A stretch of 31,694 nucleotides of DNA from Candidatus Hodarchaeota archaeon (GCA_016839785.1 JAEOTQ010000200.1:1-31694), one strand, 5' to 3'; numbered from the stretch's first letter, positions 1,544 to 12,991 are shown. Numbers and translations: made by a program. Notes: generated from the letters alone by a model not told the origin.

Positions 1544-2650
1544 CTAAGAGTAGTAAGTAAGGTTTTCGTCAAATACCTTCGCTTTCTGTAATGAATCATT
1601 TAATTCTTTCATTGTGATACTATCACGATGATATAATACTGCGTAATGAATAGCACTTTTGATAATTCTTTCTTTCAAGTCTCTTCCAGACCAATTAGCG
1701 GTTTGTCGAACAATCAAATCCCATGATATGTCATGAAAAGGAATAGGGGACGACTTTGCATATAAATCCAAAATATTTTGTCTTTCAGAAGAGGTAGGGT
1801 ATTTAAATTCAATTAAATCTTCGAATCTACTTAAAATCGCTGAATCCAGGATCTTGGGTTGATTTGTAGAGCCTATTGTAATGATTCCCTGATTAGTGTC
1901 AATTCCATCCATTTCTCCTAACAATGCACTTACTAACTCTACCACATCGCCCCTTATGCTTTGAAAATTTCTTTTCAGCGCGATTGAGTCAAGTTCATCG
2001 ATAAAAATTACTGCTGGTGCAGATCTTCTTGCTTCAGAAAATAAATTCTTGATTTTTCTTGCTCCGTCACCTACATAAATACCTAATAAATCACTCGCTT
2101 TAATTAAGAACATTGGACTCTTGATCTTATTAGAAAGAGCTTTAGCCATCATCGTCTTTCCATTTCCTGGAGGGCCCCAGAAGAGAATGTTTTTGGGTGC
2201 CCAAGGAGAGTTCATTAAATCTACATTCCTTAGAAACTTTCCAACAATCTGACATTTTTCTTTTGCTTTTTCCTGACCAATTATATCACTGAAAATTGTC
2301 TGTTGCTGACTGACCTTATTGGTAGGATCAATACTTTGTTCAGAATGTAAAATGATTTGGGTATTTTTAGTAATTTGAGATTCTTTAGGTTCAACAACAA
2401 TTGCCCGAAAAGCATAATCGGGAAATATAAGAGAATCGAATAAAAAATTCCCTTTCTTTACAACTAGTCCAATCCATTGGCTTCGTGCATAATGCTGGAA
2501 AAGAGAGGGATCATCAGTTGATAGGAATGGGGATGCTTCATCTCCTGCCTTTAATGGATATCCTACGGGTGATAATACTAATCTATCCATTTTTAACGCC
2601 GTTTTAGTAAATGATCCTGATTTAGGTTTAATTTGTGACTTATGTTCCAC
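1544..2650 (-). CDS. AAA+ ATPase, AMA-like (COG1223 type)
   Basis: N-domain PVGYPL motif; WAPKNILF followed by Walker A GPPGNGKT; Walker B IFIDELD; SRH TNQP..LDSAILSRF. GTG start, exact start uncertain. Confidence 0.85.
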   Translation of the reverse strand: MEHKSQIKPKSGSFTKTALKMDRLVLSPVGYPLKAGDEASPFLSTDDPSLFQHYARSQWIGLVVKKGNFLFDSLIFPDYAFRAIVVEPKESQITKNTQIILHSEQSIDPTNKVSQQQTIFSDIIGQEKAKEKCQIVGKFLRNVDLMNSPWAPKNILFWGPPGNGKTMMAKALSNKIKSPMFLIKASDLLGIYVGDGARKIKNLFSEARRSAPAVIFIDELDSIALKRNFQSIRGDVVELVSALLGEMDGIDTNQGIITIGSTNQPKILDSAILSRFEDLIEFKYPTSSERQNILDLYAKSSPIPFHDISWDLIVRQTANWSGRDLKERIIKSAIHYAVLYHRDSITMKELNDSLQKAKVFDENLTYYS

Positions 2651-2888
2651 TCTGATGATTCATCTCCATATATTAACCCTTTATTAAAAGATTCTTAGAC
2701 GTCTTTCAAATCTTTTTTCGCAATTGTGAGTATTCTTTTCGATAATAGAACAACTTTTAATTTCTATAGCATTGAGTTGTAAATGCCCTGAAGTAGTGTT
2801 TAGTTGTAAATCAATTCACGACTAGCATTTGTATTAGAATTCAGGTTTGATAATGGAAAAAATCCAACCTATTCGCATTGAATTACAG

Positions 2889-2991
2889 GGGTTCGTGGTC
2901 TAGCTTGGCTAGGATCCGTGCCTGGGGTGCACGAGTTCAGGGGTTCGAACTTATGCCTATACTAAGCATAACGAAATTCCCCTCGAACCCA
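2889..2991 (+). tRNA. tRNA-Pro(GGG) with 28-nt intron at 59/60
   Basis: Acceptor GGGTTCG/CGAACCC+A; D arm GTCT/GGAT; anticodon arm CGTGC-CT-GGG-GT-GCACG; T stem AGGGG/CCCCT. Removing 2950-2977 restores T loop TTCGAAT. No encoded CCA. Confidence 0.95.
2950..2977 (+). other. tRNA intron with bulge-helix-bulge motif
   Basis: Central helix TTCG/CGAA, 3-nt bulges AAC and ATT, intron stem TTATGC/GCATAA. Confidence 0.9.
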
Positions 2992-3111
2992 TTTTACATC
3001 TCTTCTTTTTCGTCCCTGGTCCATGAGAGTCGACACCGACTAATTCATACATAATATGACGATATTACCCTATCCTATAATATTTTTGTCGGTTAAGGGT
3101 ACATAACAAAA

Positions 3112-4398
3112 ATGAAGGCTAATCCAATGGAATCAATTTTAAAAGATGCTCTAAGTGGAACAGGATCGTTCAAAAATCTCGGAGAAGTAAAACGGGATCG
3201 AACAACACAGTTTATACCTTCTCCTCCAAAAATTGATGATGAAATAGCAGATATCTTAACTGAACGACTGCCTAAAGTCCAAGTTGTAGGAGTCGGAGGC
3301 GCAGGGAATAATGCGATTTTTCGTCTAATGACTACAGAGGTAGATGCTGAATGTGTTGCAGTTAATACAGATGCTCAGCATTTGTTGTCAACACGAGCAC
3401 ACAAGAAGCTCCTTATCGGAAAAGATACTTCCAGAGGATTTGGAGCAGGAAATAATCCAGAAATTGGAGAAACTGCTGCGCGTGAATCCCTAGAAGAAAT
3501 TAAAAATACTTTACAAGCAAATATGATTTTTATCACATGTGGTCTAGGTGGAGGAACAGGAACAGGTGCGGCTCATGTAATTGCACGACAGGCAAAAGAA
3601 AAAGGGGCATTGACTGTATCAATCTGTACTTTACCTTTTCAAATGGAAGGTGTCAAACGATACGAGAATGCCAGGCAGGGTTTGAAAAAATTATATGAGG
3701 CCTCTGATACAGTAATTGTAGTTCCTAATGAAAAACTTCTCCAGCTCTCTGAAGATATCACTATGATGGCAGCATTTAGAATAGCTGATGCTGTACTAAT
3801 GAGAGCTGTAATGGCTATCACAGAGCTTATAACAAAACCACAGCTTATTAATCTTGATTTTGCGGATGTAAAAAAGATTTTAACTGAGGGGGGTATGGCA
3901 ATGATTGGATTAGGAGAATCTGATCACCAAACCATGAAAGTTGATGAAGCAGTATTCGAAGCACTAAGAAACCCATTACTTGATGATTTAGATATTAGCA
4001 GGGCAAAGAAAGGACTCATATGCGTATCTGGTGGGGAAGGATTGGCCTTAAAAGATGCAGAAGAAGCAGTGATGAAAATAGCAACAGAAATCGATAATTC
4101 TGCTGAAATCATCTGGGGAGCAACCATCGATCCCGACCTAGGAAATAAAATCAGAGTAATCGTAGTATTAAGTGATGTCCATTCACCTCTGACGGAGAAC
4201 GAAGGATTATATTATTCCAAGAGTGATTTAGAGTCATTACTTGCTGATTTGGACTCTCCGTTCTCAGTCATTTCATCAAAAAATCGGAATTCAGAGGAAC
4301 ATAGAAACAATTTACCCTCTGCTCGGTTCTCCATTGAAGATGATCAAGACACAGATGTGGGAAAAACTCGTAAAAAGAAATTCTTAGGGCTATTTTAG
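3112..4398 (+). CDS. ftsZ: Cell division GTPase FtsZ
   Basis: GVGGAGNN, NTDAQHL, GAGNNPEIG, tubulin signature GGGTGTG, T7 loop INLDFAD. N- and C-terminal extensions; ends RKKKFLGLF. Confidence 0.96.
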   Translation: MKANPMESILKDALSGTGSFKNLGEVKRDRTTQFIPSPPKIDDEIADILTERLPKVQVVGVGGAGNNAIFRLMTTEVDAECVAVNTDAQHLLSTRAHKKLLIGKDTSRGFGAGNNPEIGETAARESLEEIKNTLQANMIFITCGLGGGTGTGAAHVIARQAKEKGALTVSICTLPFQMEGVKRYENARQGLKKLYEASDTVIVVPNEKLLQLSEDITMMAAFRIADAVLMRAVMAITELITKPQLINLDFADVKKILTEGGMAMIGLGESDHQTMKVDEAVFEALRNPLLDDLDISRAKKGLICVSGGEGLALKDAEEAVMKIATEIDNSAEIIWGATIDPDLGNKIRVIVVLSDVHSPLTENEGLYYSKSDLESLLADLDSPFSVISSKNRNSEEHRNNLPSARFSIEDDQDTDVGKTRKKKFLGLF

Positions 4399-10596: not shown

Positions 10597-11115
10597 ATGG
10601 GAAAAAGACCAGCTCACTGTTATACTCGTATCGATCGACCAGCATTTACGCGTAAGAAATTTATAAAAGGTGGACCTGACCCCAAAATTCGTACTTTCGA
10701 TCTAGGAGCTCCAGGTACGGACTTTCCAATAGAAGTGTCATTAATTGCAAAAGAACGATGTCAAATCTCACACAATGCATTAGAAGCTGCTAGAATTCAT
10801 GTTAATCGTTTTCTGACAAGAAATCTAGGGCGTGAGAATTATCACTATAGAATTTGCGTTTATCCTCATCATCGCATACGTGAAAATAAGATGATGACAG
10901 GAGCAGGAGCTGATCGTATTCAGAACGGAATGCGCAAAGCATTTGGAAAGGTAATTAGTGTAGCCGCACGTGTTTATGAAGAAGATAGATTACTATTCAT
11001 CCGTACAAATATTGAACATTTAGATATGGCGAAAGACGCTCTTCGACGTGGAAAATCGAAATTTCCAACTCCTTGTAGTATAAAAGTCACTAAGGGTCAA
11101 GATTTAGTCGCATAA
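10597..11115 (+). CDS. rpl10e: 50S ribosomal protein uL16 (L10e)
   Basis: MGKRPAHCY, LEAARI, RENKMMTGAGADRIQNGMRKAFGK; GGTGA SD upstream. Confidence 0.97.
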   Translation: MGKRPAHCYTRIDRPAFTRKKFIKGGPDPKIRTFDLGAPGTDFPIEVSLIAKERCQISHNALEAARIHVNRFLTRNLGRENYHYRICVYPHHRIRENKMMTGAGADRIQNGMRKAFGKVISVAARVYEEDRLLFIRTNIEHLDMAKDALRRGKSKFPTPCSIKVTKGQDLVA

Positions 11116-11302
11116 ATCCCAATTTTGAAAATTTTTTCGTTTTAGATAAATACTAAGTACTCAACGATCATTTCAATGAATCTCTAAAGAAATAAATTAG
11201 AACTGAAATGATCTTCTAATAACCAATAATCAAGATATCCTTCATTAATTCAAAGTGATTGCATATTTGCTAGCTTCTATTGATGCTAGATTTACTATAA
11301 TC

Positions 11303-11395
11303 ACCAAAATGATGATACTGACCTATACTGATGATGGGTTCATAATCGGACACCACTTGAACCTATTTATGATGTCCATGTACCTCACTGAGGAG
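11303..11395 (+). ncRNA. Box C/D methylation guide sRNA (SSU rRNA; U25/snR56-equivalent site)
   Basis: C ATGATGA 11309-11315, 12-nt guide TACTGACCTATA, D' CTGA 11328-11331, 9-bp stem ATGGGTTCA/TGAACCTAT, C' ATGATGT 11369-11375, 12-nt guide CCATGTACCTCA, D CTGA 11388-11391. Confidence 0.85.
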
Positions 11396-11469
11396 CTAAT
11401 CTCCTTTAATCTATTGAAGGATGTCTGTCAAGTTCCTGTTGAGCTTGATTCCAATAATACCTTCAAGAA

Positions 11470-11847
11470 TTGGATTTGGAGGAGATAAATACGCTAGAAC
11501 TAAAGCAAGTACTCATTCTAAGAAAAGACCTGAAGATGTCTAAAGGAAAAGCAGCAGCTCAAGCATCTCATGCAGCAGTGAGCGCTGCAGTGAAAATGAT
11601 GAAACAGAATCCTACAACATTCAACAAATGGTGGAATGGAGGACAAATGAAAGTAGTTCTGGCGGTTGAATCTGAAACACAATTAGAAGAAATTGAGTCA
11701 AGAATAAGAAGACTGGGTGTTTCCGTTACGAAAATTAATGATGCAGGAAGAACACAATTACCTCCAGGGACAGCAACTGCGCTTGGGATTGGCCCTCATA
11801 ACCAGATGGATGTTGAGAAAGTCACTTCTACCCTAAAACTATATTGA
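11470..11847 (+). CDS. pth2: Peptidyl-tRNA hydrolase Pth2
   Basis: KQVLILRKDLKMSKGKAAAQASHAA, GQMKVVL, DAGRTQL, LGIGP, ends LKLY. TTG start uncertain. Confidence 0.95.
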   Translation: MDLEEINTLELKQVLILRKDLKMSKGKAAAQASHAAVSAAVKMMKQNPTTFNKWWNGGQMKVVLAVESETQLEEIESRIRRLGVSVTKINDAGRTQLPPGTATALGIGPHNQMDVEKVTSTLKLY

Positions 11848-11887: not shown

Positions 11888-12991
11888 ATGCGAATAATAA
11901 AATCTGACTTACGTACAAATCAAGTAATTATTCGCGCCGAGACTCCTACTGATTTATACATTTTGTCAACGATAATTGTTAATGGAGATAGAGTAATTGC
12001 TAAAACTTCTCGCCGTGTTCGACGAGCAGGAACTGAAGGTAGATCAGGAGATGAAAGCCAGCGCATAACAATGATTATTGGTATTGATGTAGAAGGGCAA
12101 ATTTTTCAAGAAAGTGTTGCAAGTAATCGATTGCGAATAAAAGGAAGAATTTTCAAGGGGCCTGAACAACATGTATCAATTGGTTCATATCATACAATAA
12201 ATGTTGGTCTATCAGATACCATAACCATTTTTAAAACTGAATGGTCAAGATATTATCTGAAAATCCTAGAAGATGCAGAAAACGCATCAAAAAAGCCGAA
12301 GATTGGGTTAATAGCAGTAGATACAAACGATGTCTGTATTGGAATACTGGATAATTATCAACTGAATGTTCTATTTCAAGAAAAATCTGGAGTAAGTCGA
12401 AAACATTCAAAAGCAAAGGTGAGAAAGGAACAATCAAGTACGTTCTTTGGGTCAATTATTGAGCTTGTACAACGTAGTCTTTTACCTGAAACAAAAAACA
12501 TACTAATAGGTGGACCAGGATTCGTTAAAGAACGATTAGCTGATTACTTAAGGAATTCCTTACCCAAAGAAAATCTTAACATTGTAATTGGGAGCTCATC
12601 CAGCGGTGGTAATCGGATTGGTTTATTCGAGCTTATGAAATCTGAAGCTCTTGACAAGTTGGCCAAAGATTTTCAGATTCTTGTAGAACAACGAGACATC
12701 GATGAGTTTCTACAGAGAATAAGTAAAGGTACAGGAGACATTGCGTATGGATACAGTCATATCAAACAAATTGCAGAAACTGGAGTAATTGAAACATTAT
12801 TGCTGATTGACTCGTATCTTCATGGGACTAATCAGGCCCCAGTTTCAGATATACAAGATTTATTAAAGACCATCGAGCAGACAAAGGGAAAATTAGTTGT
12901 TATTTCCTCTCAAAGTGATTCAGCCTCCCAACTGAAAACTTTTGGAGGTATGATTGCCTTGCTTCGTTATGCCCTGAGCTGGGAAGCATAA
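11888..12991 (+). CDS. pelA: Pelota/Dom34 ribosome rescue factor
   Basis: DLYIL..I..GDRV, RLRIKGRI, GSYHTI, GPGFVKE, IAYG, QLKTFGGMIALLRY. Confidence 0.93.
   Translation: MRIIKSDLRTNQVIIRAETPTDLYILSTIIVNGDRVIAKTSRRVRRAGTEGRSGDESQRITMIIGIDVEGQIFQESVASNRLRIKGRIFKGPEQHVSIGSYHTINVGLSDTITIFKTEWSRYYLKILEDAENASKKPKIGLIAVDTNDVCIGILDNYQLNVLFQEKSGVSRKHSKAKVRKEQSSTFFGSIIELVQRSLLPETKNILIGGPGFVKERLADYLRNSLPKENLNIVIGSSSSGGNRIGLFELMKSEALDKLAKDFQILVEQRDIDEFLQRISKGTGDIAYGYSHIKQIAETGVIETLLLIDSYLHGTNQAPVSDIQDLLKTIEQTKGKLVVISSQSDSASQLKTFGGMIALLRYALSWEA

Follow-up and report, generated by a model that had tools for sequence, protein, structure and literature searches.

A probable dual-guide box C/D sRNA of Asgard archaea is complementary to both strands of 16S rRNA helix 34 at positional equivalents of the U25/snR56 and U32/snR40 targets

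The window described here, the whole stretch of 31,694 nucleotides that was analysed, is contig C180 of a 4.04-Mb assembly (248 contigs, 84.5% complete, GC ~36%) of an Asgard archaeon belonging to the Heimdall/Hod group. It carries a conserved box C/D RNA that, in our judgement, probably serves as a dual-guide methylation RNA acting on both strands of 16S rRNA helix 34, a clamp role included. On the strength of rRNA alignment, this RNA is a positional counterpart of two eukaryotic snoRNA families, U25/snR56 and U32/snR40. The positional equivalence with these two LECA snoRNA targets is solidly supported, while the methylation itself is a prediction.

Table 1. Features of the sRNA locus (window coordinates) and of the second sRNA of the same genome
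Feature	Position	Strand	Remarks
Box C/D sRNA	11309-11391	+	Boxes and guides read from sequence
Box C	11309..11315	+	ATGATGA, fits RUGAUGA; TGA.GA invariant in 20/20 aligned homologues
D' guide TACTGACCTATA	11316..11327	+	12 nt; N+5 base is C11323
Box D'	11328..11331	+	CTGA, invariant in alignment
Insert helix, 5' arm ATGGGTTCA	11334..11342	+	9 pairs with 3' arm
Insert loop, 15 nt	11343..11357	+	GGACAC(C) at 11348-11354
Insert helix, 3' arm TGAACCTAT	11358..11366	+	Covariation counts and RNAalifold
Box C'	11369..11375	+	ATGATGT, invariant in alignment
D guide CCATGTACCTCA	11376..11387	+	12 nt; N+5 base is C11383
Box D	11388..11391	+	CTGA in 19/20 homologues, CCGA in one
3' flanking hairpin GGAG-CTAAT-CTCC, then TTT	11392..11404	+	Closest subgroup only
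uL16 (L10e) gene, upstream neighbour	10597..11115	+	Pfam PF00252, E=1.6e-29
Pth2 (peptidyl-tRNA hydrolase) gene, downstream neighbour	11536..11847	+	Pfam PF01981, E=4.8e-34; open frame from 11470
Second box C/D sRNA	contig C14, 24142-24209 (L151, L152)	-	Sole other strict double-guide candidate in genome

At ~83 nt the gene is longer than typical archaeal sRNAs, which measure 50-70 nt (PMC7994747). The boxes and both guide cores, ACTGACCTA in the D' guide and CATGTACCTC in the D guide, are invariant among the 20 aligned homologues, as is the loop motif GGACAC, whose final C is kept in 19 of them; the flanks are free to diverge, and three homologues have a D' guide of 13 nt. No terminal stem was seen in the sRNA, and 21 aligned upstream regions contain no conserved TATA-like promoter element at a fixed distance. 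The hairpin that follows box D, which may be an end or processing signal, keeps its GGAG and CTCC arms around variable loops in five of the 20 homologues (window, G014, G002, G031 and G004). Another hairpin, CTAGC-N10-GCTAG, lies upstream at window positions 11270-11289; both flanking hairpins, with altered loops or compensating stems, are retained only in the four closest relatives. Four runs, all consisting of assembled contigs, were compared with the locus. A contig assembled from RNA-seq data of a relative (<90% alike) spans 11299-11550 and, being assembled, shows neither transcription nor ends; two libraries classed as 'probably DNA' also cover the sRNA, again as assembled contigs only. 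An ORF at 11255-11488 (77 aa, GTG start) spans the entire sRNA and is in all likelihood spurious; Pfam gives no match for it. Further downstream, after pth2, the window encodes a Pelota/aRF1-type protein of 367 aa with eRF1 domains 1-3 (11888-12991).

The box pattern alone does not rise above chance, since a relaxed double-guide pattern that occurs at two places in the 4.04-Mb assembly also matches the reversed sequence once. In both of the real matches, however, each of the two guides reaches at least 9.5 of 10 possible rRNA pairs, a value that the control match fails to reach. A blastn search detected the sRNA in 20 of the 21 other genomes of the genus; among 41 relatives it gave no further match at E<0.01. 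When these 20 copies were made into a covariance model and 83 genomes of the class were searched with it, the model matched the same 20 genomes plus the window's own copy (21/83), and thus none of the 61 genomes from 17 other genera of the class; this negative result of the long-form model reflects sequence divergence, as the model also misses a syntenic orthologue from another family of the same order (G019, see below). The 19 genus loci examined all have the sRNA flanked by uL16 and Pth2-Pelota, in the same orientation. It is the rRNA pairing of both guides, taken together with the genus-wide conservation and a covarying helix in the insert, that sets the element apart from chance. A previous reading made from the sequence alone had proposed a C/D sRNA with near-perfect boxes and two 12-nt guides, and the boxes, conservation and covariation confirm that proposal.

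Because the window's own assembly has no 16S gene, the target assignments rest on the 16S genes of four relatives. The complements of the two guides, GGUAGGUCAGUA and GGAGGUGCAUGG, are present in all four same-genus 16S genes that were found. The D' guide pairs with GGUAGGUCAGUA through 10 Watson-Crick pairs and a G-U at N+2, with a mismatch at N+1, and its N+5 base is opposite the leading G of AGGUC, in agreement with the sequence-only reading. This G is the equivalent of E. coli position 1197, where it aligns with A1197 (numbering by alignment to E. coli K-12 rrsH, 1542 nt). The letters of the general eukaryote probe EUK1209 presumably agree with the eukaryotic CAGGUC... at this site. The D guide pairs with GGAGGUGCAUGG in the same manner (10 Watson-Crick pairs, a G-U at N+7 and a mismatch at N+1), its N+5 base facing the G just 5' of UGCAUGG, the equivalent of E. 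coli 1051; in other lineages, the guides directed to the 1051 site have C in place of the wobble U. The D' guide thus addresses the 3' strand of helix 34 and the D guide its 5' strand, the two nucleotides lying on opposite strands and flanking C1054 and A1196. The earlier reading therefore holds for the C/D sRNA itself and for its D' target and has to be given up for the second guide, which it had directed to helix 22/23; within rRNA, that guide fits the helix-34 5' strand best, and elsewhere in the assembly it finds no better target, only its own antisense strand and two chance 10-mers. Each match by itself is modestly significant, shuffled guides reaching the same score against 16S plus 23S in 21/300 and 19/300 trials; what carries the argument is conservation combined with the fact that the guides jointly match opposite strands of a single helix. 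One of the same-genus 16S genes (L006; contig C9 of G008, 1695-3919) gives a match of 2225 nt to a 1478-position model and has a ~750-nt insertion that is possibly an intron.

The correspondence with eukaryotic rRNA follows from two published anchors, yeast C1274 being equivalent to E. coli C1054 and yeast A1427 to A1196 (PMC13231172). Counting 3 nt from the first anchor and 1 nt from the second leads to yeast G1271 and G1428 as the counterparts of the two targets. Both positions are recorded as methylated nucleotides of helix 34 in the decoding centre: Gm1271 (guided by snR40) equals human Gm1328 and Arabidopsis Gm1272, and Gm1428 (snR56) equals human Gm1490 and Arabidopsis Gm1431 (PMC2794176); U25 is given as the guide for human Gm1490 (PMC2794176, PMC8817022), and in Dictyostelium both helix-34 sites are reported as methylated (PMC8817022). 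Both guide families were assigned to LECA by Hoeppner and Poole (PMC3511168). The equation of the D' target with human Gm1490 and yeast Gm1428, offered by the sequence-only reading, is thus borne out through the alignment at E. coli 1197. Like SNORD25 (U25), snR56 and AtsnoR19, the archaeal RNA aims at this nucleotide (Gm1490, Gm1428 and Gm1431, respectively) with a guide that adjoins D', the position described for the Neurospora orthologues of snR56/U25 (PMC2780460). Like SNORD32/33 (U32, U33), snR40 and snR55 (clan CL00054), it directs a guide, here the D guide, to the equivalent of 1051. Unlike in eukaryotes, where the U25/snR56 and U32/snR40 guides are found on separate RNAs, the two reside on one molecule. 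We know of no second helix-34 guide on the eukaryotic U25/snR56 RNAs.

Covariance models, in contrast, reveal no similarity to these families. In a cmscan of 11250-11450, neither SNORD25/snR56 (RF00054, RF01188; clan CL00049) nor SNORD32/snR40 (clan CL00054) matched at E<=10. When the same interval was compared permissively with all 4227 Rfam families, no model reached E<=1 for the sRNA, the best being archaeal sR11 at E=1.3; an snR39 (CL00054) match at E=7.9 on the opposite strand upstream was set aside as noise. A scan of the whole window at the Rfam gathering thresholds returned no matches.

The insert between D' and C', 37 nt in length, forms a 9-bp helix that is paired in 91.8% of the cells of the alignment, against 23-45% in controls in which the 3' partner was slid by 1-3 columns. 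Compensatory changes on both sides occur in 7 of the 9 pairs, and RNAalifold recovers the same helix independently. Because most copies have this helix directly next to the D' box and, ahead of the GA of C', a bulge of 3 nt (AAU or UAU), the alignment suggests that C'/D' has the layout of a K-turn rather than of the usual archaeal K-loop. The short K-loop spacer of archaeal sRNAs is replaced here by 37 nt with a covarying helix, such a spacer being a common feature of the family and not a defining requirement. The conserved single-stranded motif in the loop is reminiscent of the extra base-pairing elements that van Nues et al. (2011) described between D' and C' in yeast and human RNAs (PMC3116282). 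In 16S, the sequence complementary to it, GGUGUCC, has a single copy, which lies at E. coli 1081-1087, 30 nt beyond the D-guide target in the 3' direction. Unlike for the van Nues elements, it also occurs three times in 23S, extensions into the flanks favour different sites in different homologues, and the motif is absent from G019; the target of the loop is therefore ambiguous and its pairing putative.

In the strict search, the genome yielded one other double-guide candidate, a second sRNA of the form ATGATGA-CGGTTTTACCGG-CTGA, 8-bp hairpin, ATGATGA-GTACTGGCAAG-CTGA, which blastn found in 11 of the 21 other genus genomes and whose internal hairpin between D' and C' also covaries. Its D' guide, CGGTTTTACCGG, forms a perfect 10-bp match with 16S and selects U466, the equivalent of E. 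coli U531; for its D guide, GTACTGGCAAG, no target could be assigned. Since yeast G577 equals E. coli G530 (PMC5187420), this target is the position of yeast Um578, for which snR77 is given as the guide (human Um627; PMC2794176). All three guides that could be assigned with confidence in this genome hence coincide with eukaryotic decoding-centre methylations, against a rough baseline of 13/93 for archaeal sites common to plants, as counted in PMC11542601; of the five nucleotides that carry 2'-O-methyl groups in the decoding centre of yeast 18S, they cover three, namely the equivalents of Um578, Gm1271 and Gm1428. Further sRNAs with other targets may exist, as the search was limited to near-canonical boxes. 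The protein partners are encoded in the same genome: fibrillarin (PF01269, E=5.6e-81) and Nop5 (PF01798, E=8.1e-66) side by side on contig C189, and two genes of the L7Ae family (PF01248).

We propose that the sRNA, once transcribed, would assemble with L7Ae, Nop5 and fibrillarin into a methylation RNP, in which the D' guide would direct 2'-O-methylation of the G that corresponds to E. coli 1197 and the D guide that of the G corresponding to 1051. The insert, with a helix of 9-10 bp, would turn C'/D' into a true K-turn. As a single RNP would hold both strands of helix 34, it would probably also clamp the decoding-centre region as this folds in the course of 30S assembly. Such a role has a precedent in the Nanoarchaeum-type double guides described by Dennis et al. 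(2015), who proposed that guides on two strands of one helix are chaperones (PMC4644070). N. equitans sR17 and sR15, reported to act on 16S helices 28 and 30, likewise have symmetric motifs and two 12-nt guides whose targets are distant in sequence and paired in the folded rRNA, and a chaperone role was proposed for them (PMC4644070). The present RNA differs from them in addressing helix 34 and in having the structured 37-nt insert in place of the short K-loop spacer.

To see how far the guide module extends, one genome per prokaryotic species was scanned with the pattern TGATGA-N(0-3)-ACTGACCTA-NN-CTGA, that is, with the CCTA variant and a strict C box. The 51 loci obtained fall into five groups: 18 long-form loci from records labelled Hodarchaeota, Heimdallarchaeota, Promethearchaeota or Hermodarchaeota; seven loci of a DPANN form (Micrarchaeota, Iainarchaeum and similar); six loci within a tRNA intron, from Nanoarchaeia or Woesearchaeota; two short sRNAs with a different second guide; and 18 chance matches in bacteria. 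Among the last, the pattern lies within a conserved, apparently coding stretch and has no C/D context in Brevundimonas (L033, L035, L041, L049, L062, L082) and Undibacterium (L038, L045, L053). The DPANN form consists of a C box, GCACGCACCACC, D', a 12-nt spacer, C', AACTGACCTACN and D; on the organisms' own 16S, checked in two genomes, its D' guide selects the equivalent of E. coli 1051 and its D guide that of 1197. The nucleotides are those selected by the Asgard RNA, but the two guides have exchanged positions, which means that the box position of a guide is labile. In the seven DPANN loci (L036, L037, L050, L059, L067, L072, L077), most of the 12-nt spacer complements the D' guide of the same RNA, and in several of them the gene is located just upstream of a candidate sequence resembling the start of RNase P RNA. 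At L042, L055, L057, L058, L064 and L080, a complete C/D sRNA apparently lies within a tRNA intron; the 5' tRNA half ends in CUCCUAA, which resembles an anticodon loop, the 3' half comes after the D box, and the D guide matches the 16S site at E. coli 1197.

A survey of 400 genomes of the Asgard phylum, with a pattern allowing either CCTA or CCTG, found matches in 27 genomes and none in the reversed control. They comprise 20 of the 21 other genomes of the genus together with the window's own, G019, all four genomes of another Asgard genus (g23), and G309. The module is thus present in 4 of the 85 Asgard genera searched, and the largest groups gave 0/135 and 0/89; a looser pattern applied to 269 genomes of at least 85% completeness added one probable chance match, with 0/106 and 1/58 in the two largest families. 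In G019, the order uL16-sRNA-Pth2-Pelota and the two targets are the same, and the internal hairpin has another sequence that lacks GGACACC; it follows that the locus is conserved at the level of the order and that the loop motif is specific to the genus. The g23 RNA is short and canonical, TGATGA-TACTGACCTGAA-CTGA-aaag-TGATGA-TATGCACCTCTG-CTGA. Its guides read both strands of helix 34, the second selecting the neighbouring nucleotide, one upstream on the 5' strand, in a lineage whose own 16S is unassembled. The 16S genes of G019, g23 and G309, sought for guide-target covariation, were not found in any of these assemblies. Inspection of the region after uL16 in three other families of the class revealed no sRNA; an additional locus was truncated because its contig ended there.

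The sequence-only reading had pictured a guide inherited by eukaryotes from their archaeal ancestor and had itself taken a patchy distribution as a sign of convergence. With 4 of 85 Asgard genera, plus DPANN, the distribution is patchy, and by that measure it favours convergence or repeated loss. We accordingly give about an even chance to a history in which the shared sites reflect either convergence on helix 34 as a functional hot spot or an ancient origin obscured by much loss and reshuffling. The swapped guide order in DPANN and the shift of the second site by one nucleotide in g23 fit this history; convergent evolution of archaeal guides has been documented (PMC4644070), and in Table 2 of PMC11542601 the column for Pyrococcus abyssi lists neither helix-34 site as methylated. 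Convergence is harder to reconcile with the recurrence of the same site pair on one RNA in at least three distant lineages and with the agreement of three out of three assigned guides with eukaryotic sites, set against the baseline cited above.

Direct descent, in which the dual-guide RNA or its ancestor was the forerunner of both U25/snR56 and U32/snR40, with the guides later carried by separate snoRNAs, seems to us rather doubtful. It could account for the identity of the target nucleotides of both guides, the presence of both eukaryotic families in LECA (PMC3511168), the D' position shared with the Neurospora orthologues in the description of PMC2780460, the length and eukaryote-like build of the RNA, which has a stem between D' and C', the occurrence in Heimdall- and Hod-labelled genomes and the targeting of the Um578 equivalent by the second sRNA. 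Yet the RNA has no model-based similarity to the eukaryotic families, the module is confined to the few Asgard genera listed above, and DPANN archaea carry the same guide at the D position and inside a tRNA intron, its box position being labile. Moreover, the target determines the sequence of a 10-nt guide, and similarity between guides therefore carries little phylogenetic signal. Hoeppner and Poole met the same limit when comparing archaeal sR12 with SNORD43/snR70, where the site is shared and the similarity does not go beyond the guide (PMC3511168); unlike sR12, the present RNA combines two LECA sites on one molecule, belongs to an Asgard lineage and has a syntenic orthologue at the level of the order. 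As for homology with U25/snR56, the comparison thus amounts to positional equivalence, and descent is possible but unproven.

Other readings of the locus itself fare less well. It is improbable that the D' guide acts on 23S rRNA instead of 16S, with GAUAGGUCAG, close to E. coli 23S position 2303 in the region of helix 84, as its site, even though the window's guide can form nine contiguous Watson-Crick pairs there (N+2 to N+10). The D' guide pairs over a greater length with 16S in either guide subgroup (10+1 versus 9, and 9 versus 8), and the target of its partner guide is the other strand of helix 34 in 16S. CCTG-bearing guides occur in lineages whose class-level relatives have GGCAGG and not GGUAGG in 16S, and the DPANN guides match their own 16S; the 23S sequence used came from one relative only. 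It is more improbable still that the element is a pair of L7Ae-binding K-turns regulating translation from the leader of a pth2-pelota operon, as its constant place upstream of pth2 on the same strand and the L7Ae-mRNA binding proposed in archaea (PMC5539422) might suggest, given that the two 12-nt spacers do not vary and match rRNA with the correct N+5 geometry, which a pure protein-binding site would not need, and that the g23 and DPANN counterparts lie in unrelated contexts.

A dual guide for helix 34 is thus the reading we prefer, and its bearing is mainly on the origin of snoRNAs. The 2012 comparison listed a handful of positional equivalences between archaea and eukaryotes, none of them Asgard and none convincingly homologous (PMC3511168), and our literature searches found no papers on Asgard C/D sRNAs, which is no proof of absence. 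If the C'/D' motif is indeed of the K-turn type, its structured insert means that a long, eukaryote-like C/D architecture occurs in archaea. A bolder scenario, which we put forward tentatively and consider unlikely as a whole, is that mesophilic Asgard archaea of the Heimdall/Hod type keep a very small C/D set with K-turn stems, that the archaeal ancestor already had the core methylation pattern of the decoding centre along with the ancestors of U25/snR56, U32/snR40 and snR77, and that the helix-34 pair began as one clamp RNA that was later split. Whether individual eukaryotic snoRNAs can be traced to archaeal guide RNAs is a long-standing question. With one Asgard RNA that would address two LECA-conserved sites on both strands of helix 34, and a sister RNA that would address a third, the locus described here makes the question of snoRNA ancestry concretely testable.
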